A stretch of 64,000 nt of DNA from Enterobacteria phage RB18. The first letter of the stretch is position 1; the number at the start of each line of letters is the position of its first letter. The notes under the pieces were generated by a model. That model saw only the letters and a program-made list of their open reading frames with translations, ran no database searches and was not told where the DNA came from. The translations under genes were made by a program, and so were the position numbers. Positions 6,740 through 36,336 of the stretch are shown here, one piece after another. Where the stretch lies: sequence record NC_054906.1; one strand, 5' to 3'.

Positions 6740-7239
6740 TAGCTTACACGAACATTAATCACTGCGCTGCGAGGAACTACGGAGTACTCTCCAGCATGAA
6801 CTACATTAAGAAGTTCAACGCCATCTTCAATCCACTGGTCAGTTACCCAACCGCCAATCGGATTCGCGAATGGACGACGAATATAAACTGCCTTACACAA
6901 CAAATCAGTCGGGTCTTCAATTTTTTCAACTGGTGTTACATACATAGAAACTAAATCCATATCAATATGGGATTTTTCTTGTTCTTCTTTTTCAATTTCT
7001 GTCAATAAATTGAAATCTTCTTCATAGATGATGAATGATGATACCCTTCCATAATAGTTTCTAATTTCCATGTACACTGTACCAATGAGAATTCCGCTAT
7101 TAACACTAATAACAGTAAAAGGATATCCGCCAGTTGTACCAAGAAGTTCCCAAAACTTGCTATCAGTCGTATTCGACATTGTCTGGAAATCAATTTCAGA
7201 TGGTTTTTTCATTTGATACGTAGTATTAATTTTAATCAT
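6739..7239 (-). CDS. MotB paralog
   Basis: 166 aa; C-terminal VTDQWIEDGVELLNVV..YSVVP aligns with MotB ITDQWVEDGVKLYNTV..YKVIP. Confidence 0.55.
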   Translation of the reverse strand: MIKINTTYQMKKPSEIDFQTMSNTTDSKFWELLGTTGGYPFTVISVNSGILIGTVYMEIRNYYGRVSSFIIYEEDFNLLTEIEKEEQEKSHIDMDLVSMYVTPVEKIEDPTDLLCKAVYIRRPFANPIGGWVTDQWIEDGVELLNVVHAGEYSVVPRSAVINVRVS

Positions 7240-7248
7240 AATTTTCCT

Positions 7249-7761
7249 TTAATCTAAGGTAATAAAGCCTTTTAATTCGGCATGCGATTTGCGAAACATT
7301 ACTTGATGCCCACCAATGATAACTTGATCATCTGGCACTTCATAAATCGCAATGTACATTCCACGATCTTTTAAGTCTTCACGCTCTTCTCGAGTAAACC
7401 ATCTCATTATATCATATTCACTAGCGAAAGCAAAATGATATAATGCAATAAACCACAATGGAATATAATTTTCAATTCGTGAATAATCTTTATTCCATTT
7501 AGTTTTAATAGCATCATTAGCATTTTCAACTAATAACTTATCATCGTGTGGAATAGGAATACTTTCATGACTTTCATAATCATTGCTATGATGATGAAAT
7601 GATGATGAATTAATACCGCAAAATTTTAGCCAAGTTCGAGTTTTCATAGAATCAAATCCACGATAAGGAGTTGATTGAACACATAACTCTTGCCTAATTT
7701 TCATTATACCACTATCATCATTTAATGCGCTAAACGATGATTCAACACGATAAATTTTCAT
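7249..7761 (-). CDS. hypothetical protein (170 aa from internal ATG)
   Basis: the track ORF start at 7800 overlaps the promoter; ATG at 7761 has a GAGGA RBS. Confidence 0.5.
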   Translation of the reverse strand: MKIYRVESSFSALNDDSGIMKIRQELCVQSTPYRGFDSMKTRTWLKFCGINSSSFHHHSNDYESHESIPIPHDDKLLVENANDAIKTKWNKDYSRIENYIPLWFIALYHFAFASEYDIMRWFTREEREDLKDRGMYIAIYEVPDDQVIIGGHQVMFRKSHAELKGFITLD

Positions 7762-7788
7762 TTTATTATCCTCAGTAGCTATGGTGTT

Positions 7789-7818
7789 ATAATACCACAA
7801 CTAACCGAGGAAGTAAAC
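7789..7818 (-). promoter_or_regulatory. early promoter (GTTTAC-18-TATTAT)
   Basis: minus-strand consensus between dexA and the next ORF. Confidence 0.5.
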
Positions 7819-7824
7819 AACTTT

Positions 7825-8508
7825 TTATCGTTTAGTTGGAAGAGATAGAGGATCGCATTCTTCCTCTGACGGAGCATCTTCAAGACCCATAGCATATCGC
7901 AAAGCATACTTCATCATCAGGATGTCTTTCGCACAGTCATGAATAGAATCATGTGCAACGAATCCATCTAAAGTTCCCTTTGGAAGAGGACATGTGGTCA
8001 TATCACGAACAAGTAGAAGTGCTTCAATTCTGGTACGAATATCACGCTGATTCCAAAATTTACAAGGTTCTAACTTAAATGTATCAAGCTCATTCTCTGA
8101 AACGCCGTTAAGACGTTGAATATCGCGAATGAGATCGACTAAAATTGGAAAATCAAACGACATTCCACGGCACCAGCCTTGAGATTTCCAAGGATCGATA
8201 TTATGTGCATTGATGTAATCATTAAATTTTGCAATACCATCGATAGTGCTTACATCTTCATCGGATGGTGCAATATTTTTTCGAGCTTCAGGAGACTGAT
8301 TTTTCCACCATTCGATAGTGCTTTTAGTAAAAAGACGATGTCCTTTTTGGCTTTTTAAATCAAATTTGATTTTAATGCCGCGTGAAACTAATTCATCAAA
8401 TGTTTCAACGACTTCTGGATTAGGGTCAAAAGCAATTACAGCCAAATCAATAACAGCTGCTTTTTCACCGCTTCCCATTGTTTCAAAATCTATAATAAAA
8501 TCAAACAT
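7825..8508 (-). CDS. dexA: exonuclease A (DnaQ-like 3'-5' exonuclease)
   Basis: 227 aa, same length as T4 DexA; N-terminal DFETMG-type exonuclease motif. Confidence 0.8.
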   Translation of the reverse strand: MFDFIIDFETMGSGEKAAVIDLAVIAFDPNPEVVETFDELVSRGIKIKFDLKSQKGHRLFTKSTIEWWKNQSPEARKNIAPSDEDVSTIDGIAKFNDYINAHNIDPWKSQGWCRGMSFDFPILVDLIRDIQRLNGVSENELDTFKLEPCKFWNQRDIRTRIEALLLVRDMTTCPLPKGTLDGFVAHDSIHDCAKDILMMKYALRYAMGLEDAPSEEECDPLSLPTKR

Positions 8509-16351: not shown

Positions 16352-16385
16352 TATTTTTCCTTTCAATTCATGGGTTAGTAGATTA

Positions 16386-16410
16386 ATTATACAATAAATA
16401 TATAAAGCAA
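16386..16410 (-). promoter_or_regulatory. MotA-dependent middle promoter for gene 56
   Basis: minus strand reads TTGCTTTA, 11 nt, TATAAT. Confidence 0.45.
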
Positions 16411-16422
16411 TAAGGAGGACAT

Positions 16423-16623
16423 ATGATACAAAAATTAATGGCACTTGTTAATGCCATAAAAGGTAATAAGAAACGTATAGCTTTTACTATTTCTGCTATG
16501 GTAGGAATTTTACTCTGGAACTTTATTTTATCACCTGTTGCAATTGCACATGGTATTAATATTCCAGTAGTTACTCTTGATACATTCGTAGATTTAGCAT
16601 TTGCTTTAGTTGGGTTAATTTAA
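16423..16623 (+). CDS. candidate plus-strand small hydrophobic membrane protein
   Basis: 66-aa ORF in the 268-bp gap between 61 and 56; AAGGAGG SD 3-4 nt before the ATG; two predicted hydrophobic segments. Confidence 0.3.
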   Translation: MIQKLMALVNAIKGNKKRIAFTISAMVGILLWNFILSPVAIAHGINIPVVTLDTFVDLAFALVGLI

Positions 16624-21091: not shown

Positions 21092-21454
21092 TTAAAAGAA
21101 TTTAAATTTTTTCTTTGACCTTTTATTAAATGCATCTTGTAGTTGCATTGTAATACATTTTTCTACATGAGGAGCTAACTCAGCTTTTCTTTCTTGGTCA
21201 AGAACAGCAAAGTCCATTACAACCTTTCCATCAACCCAATCTAATTTTGTCACATACACAATGTGTGTAGAACCGTCTTCTAGTTTAATGACAATCTCCT
21301 GGATAACATTTTCCATGGCAGATTTAATTATCTTAAGAGATTCATTAAAAAGACGTTCTTTTCTTTCTTCTTCCCCCTCCGAAGAGGGGGATTCATCGAT
21401 AATTTCTAGATCTAAATCTAAATCATCTTTATTCATTAAATTCTTCCATATCAC
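21092..21454 (-). CDS. 40: acidic protein at the gene 40 position (head vertex assembly chaperone)
   Basis: 120-aa ORF between uvsX and 41, as in T4 gene order. Confidence 0.5.
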   Translation of the reverse strand: MIWKNLMNKDDLDLDLEIIDESPSSEGEEERKERLFNESLKIIKSAMENVIQEIVIKLEDGSTHIVYVTKLDWVDGKVVMDFAVLDQERKAELAPHVEKCITMQLQDAFNKRSKKKFKFF

Positions 21455-22610
21455 TTAACTGCTCGAGGTCAGTTTCTAAATCAGCAGCTGATTTACTTTT
21501 ACTTTCTGGAGATTTAAATTTTTCAACCTTTGAGTTAATCAATTCATCAACTTCAGCTTCAACAATTTCATTACTATCAATAGCACCTAACTGATAAGCA
21601 CGTTTAATAGCATCTCGGAATGGTTGATGCTTAAATAAAGGACCCCAGAATGTAGTGCAGTTGGTATCTTTTGCACGCCAAGATTTTTCTTCGCGAACCA
21701 TCTCGCCGGTTTCTTCATCAAGAAATTCACGAGCATACCAGCCATTTTTAGGTTTTACCACGAATCCTAATTCTAGAGCCATATCTAACAATCCAGAATA
21801 AGGATCGATACCACCGTCAAATTTAACATCAATAAAGAATTTACTTTTTTCTTTAACGGTACGAGATTTTTCTACATTTAGAACAAATTGATACCCCTGA
21901 AGATCAGAACCATCTTTAATTTGACGTTTACCGATAATGAATACAGTATCAGCCGAATACATTACGCCTGTACCACCTGTCATCACGGTTTTACTAAACA
22001 TTTCAATGGTTTCAATTGTATGGTTAACCGCAACGCACGGAATATTTTTAATGCTAAAATAAGGAGTAACAATACGGAATAATGACTTCAGTGATTTAGC
22101 ACGAGTCATATCTGCCACAGATTTTTCATTCAAGGCATCTTCAGTTTCTTTCTTAGAAGCCATATTACCAATTGAGTCGATGAATACTATAACTTTTTCA
22201 CCACGCTCAATAGCTTCAAGCTGATTCACCATATCAATTTTCAGCTGTTCAACTGACTGGATTGGCGTATGAATTACTCGTTCCGGGTCAACTCCCATGG
22301 ATCGCAAATAAGCTGGAGTAATACCAAATTCGCTATCATAGAATAGACAAACCGCGTCAGGATATTTGTTCAAATATGCCGCAACCATAGTCAAAGACAT
22401 ATTTGATTTAAAGTGTTTAGAAGGCCCTGCGAAAATAGTTAAACCAGACTGCATACCGCCATCAATCGCACCAGAAATAGCGATATTAAGCATTGGGATT
22501 TTTGTACGGATTACATCCTTTTCATTAAAGAATTTAGATGTAGTCAGTTCAGCAGTCATTTTAGAAGTGGAAGCTTTAATCAAACGGGATTTTAAATCTG
22601 CAATAGACAT
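21429..22610 (-). CDS. uvsX: UvsX RecA-like recombinase
   Basis: 393 aa; DLKSRLIKASTSK...TAELT.SKFFNEKD matches recalled T4 UvsX. Confidence 0.9.
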   Translation of the reverse strand: MSIADLKSRLIKASTSKMTAELTTSKFFNEKDVIRTKIPMLNIAISGAIDGGMQSGLTIFAGPSKHFKSNMSLTMVAAYLNKYPDAVCLFYDSEFGITPAYLRSMGVDPERVIHTPIQSVEQLKIDMVNQLEAIERGEKVIVFIDSIGNMASKKETEDALNEKSVADMTRAKSLKSLFRIVTPYFSIKNIPCVAVNHTIETIEMFSKTVMTGGTGVMYSADTVFIIGKRQIKDGSDLQGYQFVLNVEKSRTVKEKSKFFIDVKFDGGIDPYSGLLDMALELGFVVKPKNGWYAREFLDEETGEMVREEKSWRAKDTNCTTFWGPLFKHQPFRDAIKRAYQLGAIDSNEIVEAEVDELINSKVEKFKSPESKSKSAADLETDLEQLSDMEEFNE

Positions 22611-22687
22611 TCATTTTTTCCATAGGCATCATTATATTTTCCTCACTGGTTAAAGATAGAGTAATTATAACACAATAAATTTAGGCA

Positions 22688-23536
22688 TTAATCAACTGCT
22701 ATCGGATGAATAGCATTAAACTTATGAAATGCTTCTGATTTTTCTTTGCGCGAAACACACATGCGAAGAACCTTTAATGGCTCGTCTTCTTCACCCAACG
22801 ATTTTCGTTTTTCAATATTAGAAGTTTTCCAACGAGCTTGCTCTGGAAACTCTCTATTGATTTGCTCAAGCGCTCTATTATGTTTAGAATTACTGCGAAT
22901 TGAACTGCACCCGCCAGGAGCTTGTGCTTTTCCAGATACAACTAGATATTTGAACAAGGCCAAATGCGGATAACCTTGATTAATTAAATTGAGAAATGCA
23001 TACATATCTTCGCATAAATCAATTTTTCCATACCCAATTTGTTCTGTAGTAAGTTTTCCGAGGTCATACCATGTATTCGTGAATCCATATGAATTTTCAC
23101 GATAATTACCCCAAGATGAAGTAATTTTAAAAATAGGTAGACGAGCATGGCCATGATAATACCCACAATCCATGGCATCCTCAACATATTGAATCAATTC
23201 ATAGAACTGTTCACGAGTCAATTGATTGACTTTATCTACACAACGACGATCATCTCTTTTTCGCATTGAACTCATACGAATAGTAGTATCATCGTCAATC
23301 ATCCAGATTCGTTGACCTGCATACGTATCAGTAATTGCTTTACGAGTACCGGCAATTCCGTTTACATCATCAGGAATAGTTATAATTTTAGCTCTAGACC
23401 CATAGACATCATAATAAGCTTTTTCTTCGTGTTCACGCACTACAATATGAGGTTCATAATCAGTCGGAAACATATCAAGGGCAGAAACTGCCCCGACACG
23501 CTGATAACTTGGAATTACGAATTGAATCATTTCCAC
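22688..23536 (-). CDS. GT-A glycosyltransferase at the beta-gt locus (possibly beta-glucosyl-HMC-alpha-glucosyltransferase type)
   Basis: 282 aa with DXD-type motif IWMIDDDTTI; sits where T4 has the 351-aa beta-gt. Confidence 0.5.
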   Translation of the reverse strand: MEMIQFVIPSYQRVGAVSALDMFPTDYEPHIVVREHEEKAYYDVYGSRAKIITIPDDVNGIAGTRKAITDTYAGQRIWMIDDDTTIRMSSMRKRDDRRCVDKVNQLTREQFYELIQYVEDAMDCGYYHGHARLPIFKITSSWGNYRENSYGFTNTWYDLGKLTTEQIGYGKIDLCEDMYAFLNLINQGYPHLALFKYLVVSGKAQAPGGCSSIRSNSKHNRALEQINREFPEQARWKTSNIEKRKSLGEEDEPLKVLRMCVSRKEKSEAFHKFNAIHPIAVD

Positions 23537-24268
23537 TCACCTTTATAGTCTTTTTTCACAATATGAGTTTCGCCAGTATTCCACCAATGATCAACCAAGT
23601 AAAAATGACGAGAATATACATGAAGACTTCCGACATTCCATATAATAGAACCTGCTTTATACTGACGAGTTGAATCGCCTGCATTCAAATCAGATACTAA
23701 TTTATCTAATACGTATTTTTGCCATGCATAATCATTGCGGAATCCGAAGACCACGTCATTTGAGCGCATGCTTACTACTGCATTGACTTTCTTATCACGA
23801 ATCAGGTACTGTACTGTATTAGTACACATGAAATCTGACATACCATCTTTATTGTAGTCAAACTGCATAGATGGACGAGTATAAATCATGATACCACGTC
23901 GAGAATCAGGATTTTGACCAAGTTCAGCTAAACACATATCATACTGGGCATAGTTATCTTCTGACCAGATAGCCCAACCATAATTCGAGTTAATTTCACC
24001 TTTAGAAGATGCTACTTGTTGCCAAATCTTCGGTGTTTCACCCGGAATATCTTTAACGAACAAGCTCTTAGATTTATACCATTCAAGTTCACGCTGAATG
24101 TATTCATCATTAAGAGCGCCAAAAATAAACGGTTCATCTGCTACAAATGATGCGCCAATAATTTCAATAGTTTTAACACCAGTTTTATCAACTACGAAAT
24201 CTTTTTCTTTTTAATGCAAGCCCCAAATGAAGACGGATTTCTTCAACTGTCATAGAGTCACTAATCAT
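23527..24268 (-). pseudogene. 42: dCMP hydroxymethylase gene 42 with apparent +1 frameshift
   Basis: ATG at 24268 reads MISDSMTVEEIRLHLGLALK then stops; the remaining 178 codons lie in another frame; the shift is in an A5-G-A5 run at about 24208..24212. Confidence 0.65.
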
Positions 24269-24275
24269 TTAAACC

Positions 24276-24425
24276 TCAATTGATACATTCATATTTAACT
24301 TGTAACAGTAATAAACCCCAACCTAAAATAATAGTTGGAATCATAAGAGGAACCGTTACACTATAGTATATACTTATTATAATCATCAAGATTAAAAGCA
24401 ATGCTGCTATAATTTTGCTTTTCAT
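24276..24425 (-). CDS. small hydrophobic membrane protein (49 aa), absent from the ORF track
   Basis: ATGA overlap with the imm stop; MKSKIIAALLLILMIIISIYYSVTVPLMIPTIILGWGLLLLQ. Confidence 0.4.
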   Translation of the reverse strand: MKSKIIAALLLILMIIISIYYSVTVPLMIPTIILGWGLLLLQVKYECIN

Positions 24426-24673
24426 TCCTTCTCTCTGATGATAATTACCTGATTTGGCTGCGCAGACTTTTTAGTTTCACCTGCAATTGACCAAATAAAT
24501 GTAATAAACCAACCAATAATTGACCAGTTAAACAGTAAAGACGTGAAAAAGATTCCTACTGTCGATTTTGACCCACGCATCAAGGCGATAAACCATGGAA
24601 GCATGTATATAATAATAGCCAACACGCCTGAAACTAAAACCATAAAAATTGAACCTGCTACTAAAGTTTCCAT
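24422..24673 (-). CDS. imm: Imm immunity (superinfection exclusion) membrane protein
   Basis: 83 aa as in T4; two transmembrane segments. Confidence 0.8.
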   Translation of the reverse strand: METLVAGSIFMVLVSGVLAIIIYMLPWFIALMRGSKSTVGIFFTSLLFNWSIIGWFITFIWSIAGETKKSAQPNQVIIIREKE

Positions 24674-25366: not shown

Positions 25367-25450
25367 CGTTTTGTGAAAAATTTTTAATGAATCCAAAGGG
25401 TCCAGAATCATCTGTTTTTCATAAGTATAGATTTATATTACTTGTATGAA

Positions 25451-35117: not shown

Positions 35118-35135
35118 AAAGGGCCGAAGCCCTTT
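35118..35135 (-). terminator. UUCG hairpin at the alpha-gt stop
   Basis: aaagggc-cgaa-gcccttt overlapping the stop codon. Confidence 0.45.
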
Positions 35136-36336
35136 ATTTTGTAATAATGTCAAACTGTTCTTTAAAGCAGAAGCTTGAATCTTGATGTTGATACAAAAAT
35201 TCATACGCTTTTTCTCGCTCACGGTCATAAAGAGCTCGGTCAGATGACAGTTCTTTAATACGCTCGAATGTTGATTCCATATCATTTTCATCAAACCAAA
35301 CGATACCGCTATCATGCGAAATTAGCGGAGTATTATCAACACGGAATTTTAAATTTTCGCCAGTAGATTTCCAAAATACCGGAATTGTTCCACATGCACC
35401 AAGCTCGAGATGAGTATATTCTAAAGAACGTTGTAAATATTTTTTGTCCAACTTACTCAGCTGATAACCAAATCCGGATTTACTCATGCGTTCAAGCATT
35501 TCGCTATTTACATAACGGTCAAGAATTTGCGTTGGCAAATTAGGAGCAATTTTAATTTGGTCTACTTGATGAAGACGATAATATTCATATGGAATTCCCT
35601 TTTCTTTAATAGGAATGAACGCTGGAGAACGTTCCAGACCTTCCATAATAGTACTTAGTCCTGCAGGTTTAAGATGTTTTTCATGAAAATCAAACATCTG
35701 ATAAAAACCTTTCCATGTAGTCGTACGACCAATCCAACGGTTGATATTCATGTTAATTTCAGAAACATCTTTCCAGTAGGTTGATCGAACCTTCGCAATA
35801 TCCATCGGAGGCTGAAAGTTATATACTGTCGGTGCTTCTTCAATATCATCAAACAGAGAAACAGTTTCTGGATACCACTCTTTCATCAGAACTTTATTAA
35901 AATCACCATTATCGGAATGGCTAAAAATAACATCAGCTCGACGAACAGTTTCTTCTAATCCCAAATTTCGGCGCAAAGAAAGAGAAGAATGGTCATGTTG
36001 ATAAACTACAACACGAACCGAAGGTTTAATGTTATCAATAATTTTTTTATAGTTATTAATAGTGTCTTCTTCAACTGAAGTAGCAGGAACTGAATTGATA
36101 ATTAGAATATCACAATCATTTACCAGCTTAAGTGTTTTATCGTATTCTTTTGCCAATAAAACCGGAATTGAAAATGATTTATAATCATGCGCACAATTAC
36201 GAGTAAATGATTTATCTTTAGCATAAACCAAAGTCACTTCATGACCATTTTTAATAAACCAATCACGTTGCTCGAGTGAGAATTTTGTTACACCACAACC
36301 TTCAAGACCTCGAGCCATAAAAATACATACTTTCAT
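35134..36336 (-). CDS. a-gt: DNA alpha-glucosyltransferase
   Basis: 400 aa; CIFMARGLEGCGVTKFSLEQRDWFIKNGHEVTLVYAKDKSFTR matches recalled T4 alpha-gt. Confidence 0.9.
   Translation of the reverse strand: MKVCIFMARGLEGCGVTKFSLEQRDWFIKNGHEVTLVYAKDKSFTRNCAHDYKSFSIPVLLAKEYDKTLKLVNDCDILIINSVPATSVEEDTINNYKKIIDNIKPSVRVVVYQHDHSSLSLRRNLGLEETVRRADVIFSHSDNGDFNKVLMKEWYPETVSLFDDIEEAPTVYNFQPPMDIAKVRSTYWKDVSEINMNINRWIGRTTTWKGFYQMFDFHEKHLKPAGLSTIMEGLERSPAFIPIKEKGIPYEYYRLHQVDQIKIAPNLPTQILDRYVNSEMLERMSKSGFGYQLSKLDKKYLQRSLEYTHLELGACGTIPVFWKSTGENLKFRVDNTPLISHDSGIVWFDENDMESTFERIKELSSDRALYDREREKAYEFLYQHQDSSFCFKEQFDIITK

Follow-up and report, generated by a model that had tools for sequence, protein, structure and literature searches.

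Enterobacteria phage RB18 very probably carries a T2/T6-type beta-glucosyl-HMC-alpha-glucosyltransferase between uvsX and gene 42, beside a one-base insertion in gene 42 that is probably a sequencing error

The minus-strand coding sequence at positions 22688..23530 very probably specifies the beta-glucosyl-HMC-alpha-glucosyltransferase of the T2/T6 type (ba-gt, also named g-gt, ggt or TAGT), and this allele is presumably active. It lies in the window, the whole 64-kb stretch of DNA analysed. This stretch is the opening part of a Tequatrovirus (T4-like) genome, its base 1 falling at the rIIA stop codon just as the record of T4 does, and it is 97-98.6% identical to its nearest records. The only Pfam match of the product was the TET-associated glycosyltransferase family (TAGT, PF20691), which scored 38.5 bits against a cutoff of 27.5 and covered profile positions 2-205 of 205, while the match in PHROGs was phrog_842, 'beta-glucosyl-HMC-alpha-glucosyltransferase' (E 1.2e-88). 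Moreover, the homology to the T2/T6 enzyme that the sequence-only reading had proposed as a check was found, as 276 of 280 residues were identical to the T2 protein (AP018813) and 274 of 280 to the T6 protein (MH550421). The enzymes of phages EH2 and KarlGJung were identical at 278 of 280 positions each, and the protein of a further T6 record (AP018814), one residue shorter, showed about 98% identity. A tblastn search detected ba-gt in 687 phage records (near full length in 683), mostly adjoining gene 42 and often annotated as ba-gt. The gene is an already known feature, a textbook gene that sits where expected in a T4-like coliphage.

The longest open reading frame at this locus, 22688..23536 on the minus strand, starts with GTG and has 282 codons for amino acids, two of them beyond an ATG at 23530. 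The GTG at 23536 was considered as the start and rejected on the grounds of Shine-Dalgarno spacing and of the start used in annotated homologues. The ATG at 23530, giving 280 aa plus stop, is the likely start because a GGTGAG read from the sequence about 8 nt upstream of it has suitable spacing and because all homologue annotations use it, those of T2 (AP018813), KarlGJung and Geo giving an 843-nt CDS of 280 aa from the same ATG. Thus, the open reading frame and its location between uvsX and gene 42, as originally described, were confirmed, while the length of 282 aa was probably two residues too long. Downstream, the gene is followed by the uvsX recombinase gene (21429..22610, minus strand; phrog_97, E 7e-110), and directly upstream lies gene 42, the 3' part of which matches the thymidylate-synthase/dCMP-hydroxymethylase family. 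The stop codon of gene 42 and the start codon of ba-gt overlap in an ATGA (23527..23530, minus strand), and the same 4-nt overlap appears in the annotated CDS coordinates of KarlGJung, T2 and Geo, which suggests translational coupling of the two genes. This placement, with uvsX on one side and the overlapping stop codon of gene 42 on the other, is that of the T2/T6 ba-gt locus, and the gene order around it is the same in T2, T6, KarlGJung and Geo. A promoter and terminator scan of positions 22400-24600 gave 13 promoter-like sites (9.6 expected) and two terminator-like sites (0.9 expected), nothing beyond chance.

When the window was compared by blastn with the T4 genome (NC_000866), homology stopped at 22598 and restarted at 23545, leaving a ba-gt-carrying segment of 946 bp (22599..23544) without DNA homology to T4. 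The T4 equivalent of this segment is 1941 bp long (NC_000866 23556-25496) and holds segA and beta-gt, and the breakpoints are sharp and lie inside the flanking genes, within a few codons of the start of uvsX and of the end of gene 42. Neither T4 beta-gt nor segA had a counterpart within the 64-kb window (best tblastn E 1.4 and 1.6, respectively). Furthermore, T4 beta-gt and the ba-gt protein showed no similarity to each other (best blastp E 1.4), and the T4 family PF09198 was absent from the Pfam result, which gave TAGT only. On the T4 side, a homing endonuclease gene, segA, stands beside beta-gt, and the arrangement hints at an endonuclease-linked exchange that moved the T4 cassette. The locus had been presented in the sequence-only reading as holding a different enzyme, a departure from T4; this has to be turned around, as alpha-gt plus TAGT is the norm in Tequatrovirus and T4 is the exception. 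The T4-type combination of alpha-gt and beta-gt was reported in six of 753 genomes, the usual state being alpha-gt (or beta-gt) together with TAGT (PMC13216743).

The earlier description of a GT-A-type enzyme with a DDD motif was supported. The motif (GAC GAT GAT, 23288..23296 on the minus strand) occupies residues 79-81, directly after the predicted strand beta-4 (residues 74-77), and was invariant in an alignment of ten sequences reaching down to homologues of 32% identity; IPSY.R, GI.GTR, ED.Y and PGG.S..R were also conserved in this alignment. An AlphaFold2 model built from the same ten sequences had a mean pLDDT of 70 and a pTM of 0.72, in which residues 1-80 scored 84-95 and confidence was low for residues 126-150. 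In this model the N-terminal half is a Rossmann-like beta-alpha-beta arrangement in which strand 74-77 runs into the DDD, so that a GT-A fold with a DXD-type motif after beta-4 is predicted. The modelled structure supports the assignment of the product as a GT-A-fold, DXD-type glycosyltransferase, and the DDD is presumed to be the site that binds a divalent metal and the diphosphate of UDP-glucose. The fold class, together with the beta linkage in the known product, points to a mechanism that is presumably metal-dependent and inverting. No solved relative turned up when the PDB was searched by sequence, the best match (E 1.5) being an unrelated protein.

The acceptor-making partner is present in the same window. 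The gene for alpha-glucosyltransferase (alpha-gt) at 35134..36336 on the minus strand encodes 400 aa, matched phrog_2888 (E 4e-222), and is intact as had been claimed, with 396 of 400 residues identical to T2, 397 to EH2 and 365 to T6. It contains an in-frame tract of seven A at 36042..36048 (minus strand; coding nt 289-295). An in-frame tract of six A lies at about 35440-35445 (coding nt 892-897), and both tracts are as in T2. The T2 alpha-gt tract at nt 288-296 has been shown to be a reversible frameshift 'contingency locus' that turns glucosylation off and on (bioRxiv 10.1101/2025.10.21.683753), and switching alpha-gt off would also take away the acceptor of ba-gt.

In T2 and T6, the TAGT/ba-gt enzyme adds glucose to alpha-glucosyl-hmC to form gentiobiosyl-hmC (PMC13216743). 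T6 deleted for ba-gt is more sensitive to Brig1, which can degrade the DNA of the mutant (PMC11078745), and BapA frees glucose from the DNA of T6 lacking g-gt but not from wild-type T6 DNA (bioRxiv 10.64898/2026.02.25.707755); both changes are consistent with loss of gentiobiosyl-hmC. Moreover, LC-MS of Tequatrovirus phages with alpha-gt and TAGT detected hmdC, alpha-glucosyl-mdC and alpha-gentiobiosyl-mdC, with no beta-glucosyl-mdC (PMC13390438). On this basis, the proposed pathway would begin with gp42 making hm-dCMP, and hmC would be incorporated as the DNA is replicated. About three quarters of the hmC residues would then receive an alpha-linked glucose from alpha-gt, a GT-B enzyme. With UDP-glucose as donor, ba-gt would attach a further glucose to the first one through a beta-1,6 linkage, giving gentiobiosyl-hmC. 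The disaccharide would shield the DNA from the Brig1 glycosylase and the BapA glucosidase, readers of mono-alpha-glucosyl-hmC, while the unglucosylated hmC (about 25-33%) would stay open to hmC-specific enzymes. For the allele in the window, beta-1,6 transfer to alpha-glucosyl-hmC would be expected from what is known of the T2/T6 orthologues, in line with the LC-MS of its relatives.

The TAGT family is diverse and its specificity incompletely defined, and many phages carry a solitary TAGT without alpha-gt or beta-gt (PMC13216743), so the enzyme might in principle use a different sugar or acceptor, for instance hmC directly or a non-glucose sugar, as distant TAGT homologues may. However, the 98-99% identity to the T2, T6 and EH2 enzymes makes a change of specificity very unlikely, and both genetics in T6 and LC-MS of close relatives point to gentiobiose as the product of this orthologue; such a deviation is considered extremely improbable. 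The gentiobiosyl type of modification suggested in the sequence-only reading is thus supported by the identity of the enzyme, the intact alpha-gt, the absence of beta-gt and the literature on the gene pair, provided that a one-base insertion in gene 42 described below is a sequencing error. Likewise, the literature on this gene pair shows a changed sensitivity to defence enzymes, in agreement with the altered restriction sensitivity that had been anticipated (PMC11078745, PMC13390438, PMC13216743).

Gentiobiosyl-hmC accounts for about 5% of hmC in T2 and about 72% in T6, with near-identical enzymes (PMC11078745; bioRxiv 10.64898/2026.02.25.707755), and therefore the extent of modification is not readable from sequence. 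Among measured relatives, Geo, EL and BGP contained hmdC, alpha-glucosyl-mdC and alpha-gentiobiosyl-mdC at about 1:2:2, while EH2 and six others had about one third hmdC and about two thirds gentiobiosyl-mdC (PMC13390438). The enzyme pair of EH2 is the closest among the phages with measured DNA, and for this reason the modification in the window phage would be expected to be EH2-like, with about two thirds gentiobiosyl-hmC, or T6-like. The two ba-gt proteins differ at positions 42 and 69 only, and the alpha-gt of the window is a T2-type allele, as is that of EH2 (399 of 400 residues identical to T2). The notion that a T2-type alpha-gt allele predicts a T2-like low gentiobiosylation was rejected, since EH2 has the same allele and yet a high content of gentiobiosyl-hmC.

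The main uncertainty in this expectation is M69T. Two residues are private to the ba-gt of the window, namely V42 (A elsewhere) and T69, and through either or both of them the enzyme could be expressed as a weak allele, leaving a T2-like DNA with mostly mono-alpha-glucosyl-hmC and a few percent of gentiobiosyl-hmC. Position 69 is M in eight of the nine other aligned homologues, down to 47% identity, and T69 was absent from T2, T6, Geo, EH2, KarlGJung and all phage records searched (best tblastn identity 99.3%), nor was the exact 280-aa protein with V42 and T69 found in an assembly collection. The roughly 5% of gentiobiosyl-hmC in T2, which has a near-identical enzyme, also speaks for such an outcome. 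Nevertheless, replacing Met by Thr at a helix end is a moderate substitution, the catalytic motifs are intact in the alignment, and EH2, whose ba-gt shows no other differences and whose alpha-gt is nearly the same, contains about two thirds gentiobiosyl-hmC, which makes a weak allele unlikely and leaves EH2- or T6-like modification as the preferred expectation.

Both public T6 reference genomes were found to carry lesions in ba-gt, which is unexpected in the very phage that sets the standard of high gentiobiosylation. In MH550421 (segment positions 7138-7980), codon 10 is TAG and the annotated 'ggt' is a shortened product of 261 aa, while in AP018814 (segment positions 2135-2974) a contraction from (GAT)3 to (GAT)2 removes one Asp of the invariant DDD, leaving 279 aa. 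With regard to other modification genes, neither a dam methyltransferase nor a restriction-enzyme-like gene was present at about 16371-16620, between genes 56 and 61, and tblastn with the Dam protein of Geo detected no homologue in the 64 kb.

The source of hmC, gene 42 (dCMP hydroxymethylase; 23527..24268, minus strand, 742 nt), is interrupted in the sequence as written. From its ATG at 24268, the frame is lost after codon 20 and a product of 26 aa results, owing to an insertion in an A-run (24208..24212, minus strand) that has five A on the coding strand instead of the four in T2, T6, KarlGJung and Geo. This frameshift had been missed in the first reading of the window. Removal of one A restored a gp42 of 246 aa, of which 245 residues were identical to T2 gp42. 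Gene 42 is essential on normal hosts, as established by T4 genetics, because the dCTPase gp56 removes dCTP, and a gene 56 open reading frame is present in the window. Given that the gene is essential, that the rest of it is undecayed and that the change is a single homopolymer base, the extra A very probably arose in sequencing or consensus calling.

If the insertion were real, no hm-dCMP would be made, the DNA would contain plain cytosine or the variant would be non-viable, and both glucosyltransferases would be idle, ba-gt being an orthologue in a silent pathway. This reading draws on the fact that the insertion stands in the sequence and is the only coding indel found in the aligned regions that breaks a frame. 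The further differences of one or two bases that set the window apart from every comparator (at 25376, 28262, 36362 and 43135) are intergenic, so that homopolymer errors are not a general problem of the assembly. However, gene 42 is needed on normal hosts in a phage that has the gene 56 reading frame, and it is otherwise preserved without decay, as the near-complete identity to T2 after correction indicates. Moreover, the variant is private, being absent from the four relatives and from IMG/VR, where the string with five A had no match and the wild-type string had three, and one additional base in a homopolymer is typical of sequencing or consensus errors. A silent pathway is thus very unlikely. 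That the extra A is genuine, marking either a T-even phage null for dCMP hydroxymethylase, of natural or laboratory origin, or slippage at the A-run for the production of gp42, with a full but substrate-less module of alpha-gt and ba-gt, is likewise regarded as highly improbable. In such a phage neither transferase would have a substrate, so that the insertion affects both the annotation and any prediction of DNA modification, and it should be treated as a point of quality control before the genome is used.

The status of ba-gt decides between mono-glucosyl-hmC and diglucosyl (gentiobiosyl) hmC in a T-even phage. Sensitivity to Brig1-type glycosylases and to the BapA glucosidase follows from this sugar state, as may sensitivity to further defences that depend on modification, and the status of ba-gt is useful in the choice or engineering of phages.

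Among known systems, the inverting GT-A enzymes of family GT2 (for example BcsA, TarP and TarS) share only 7-18% sequence identity with the protein, and their acceptors are polysaccharides or teichoic acids rather than sugar-modified DNA. T4 beta-glucosyltransferase (351 aa, PF09198) occupies the same syntenic slot, and it likewise uses UDP-glucose as donor and forms a beta linkage on phage DNA. In contrast, its fold is GT-B instead of the GT-A of ba-gt, it glucosylates hmC directly while ba-gt extends alpha-glucosyl-hmC, and its neighbour in T4 is the homing endonuclease gene segA, for which the window has no counterpart. Much closer is Escherichia phage vB_Eco_EH2 (OZ034684), in which ba-gt (278/280) and alpha-gt (397/400) are nearly the same and, as in the window, no dam lies between genes 56 and 61. 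T2 carries a dam-like methylase gene in this interval, and Geo carries a dam gene as well as a restriction-enzyme-like gene, whereas the window resembles T6 and EH2. However, EH2 is a different isolate and its DNA was measured by LC-MS, whereas the modification of the window phage is predicted from genes. Finally, apart from the private A42V and M69T of this allele and the one-base insertion in the adjoining gene 42, the gene is that of T2 and T6, with the same length (280 aa), the same locus, the 4-nt overlap with gene 42, the DDD motif, the alpha-gt partner and 98-99% identity.
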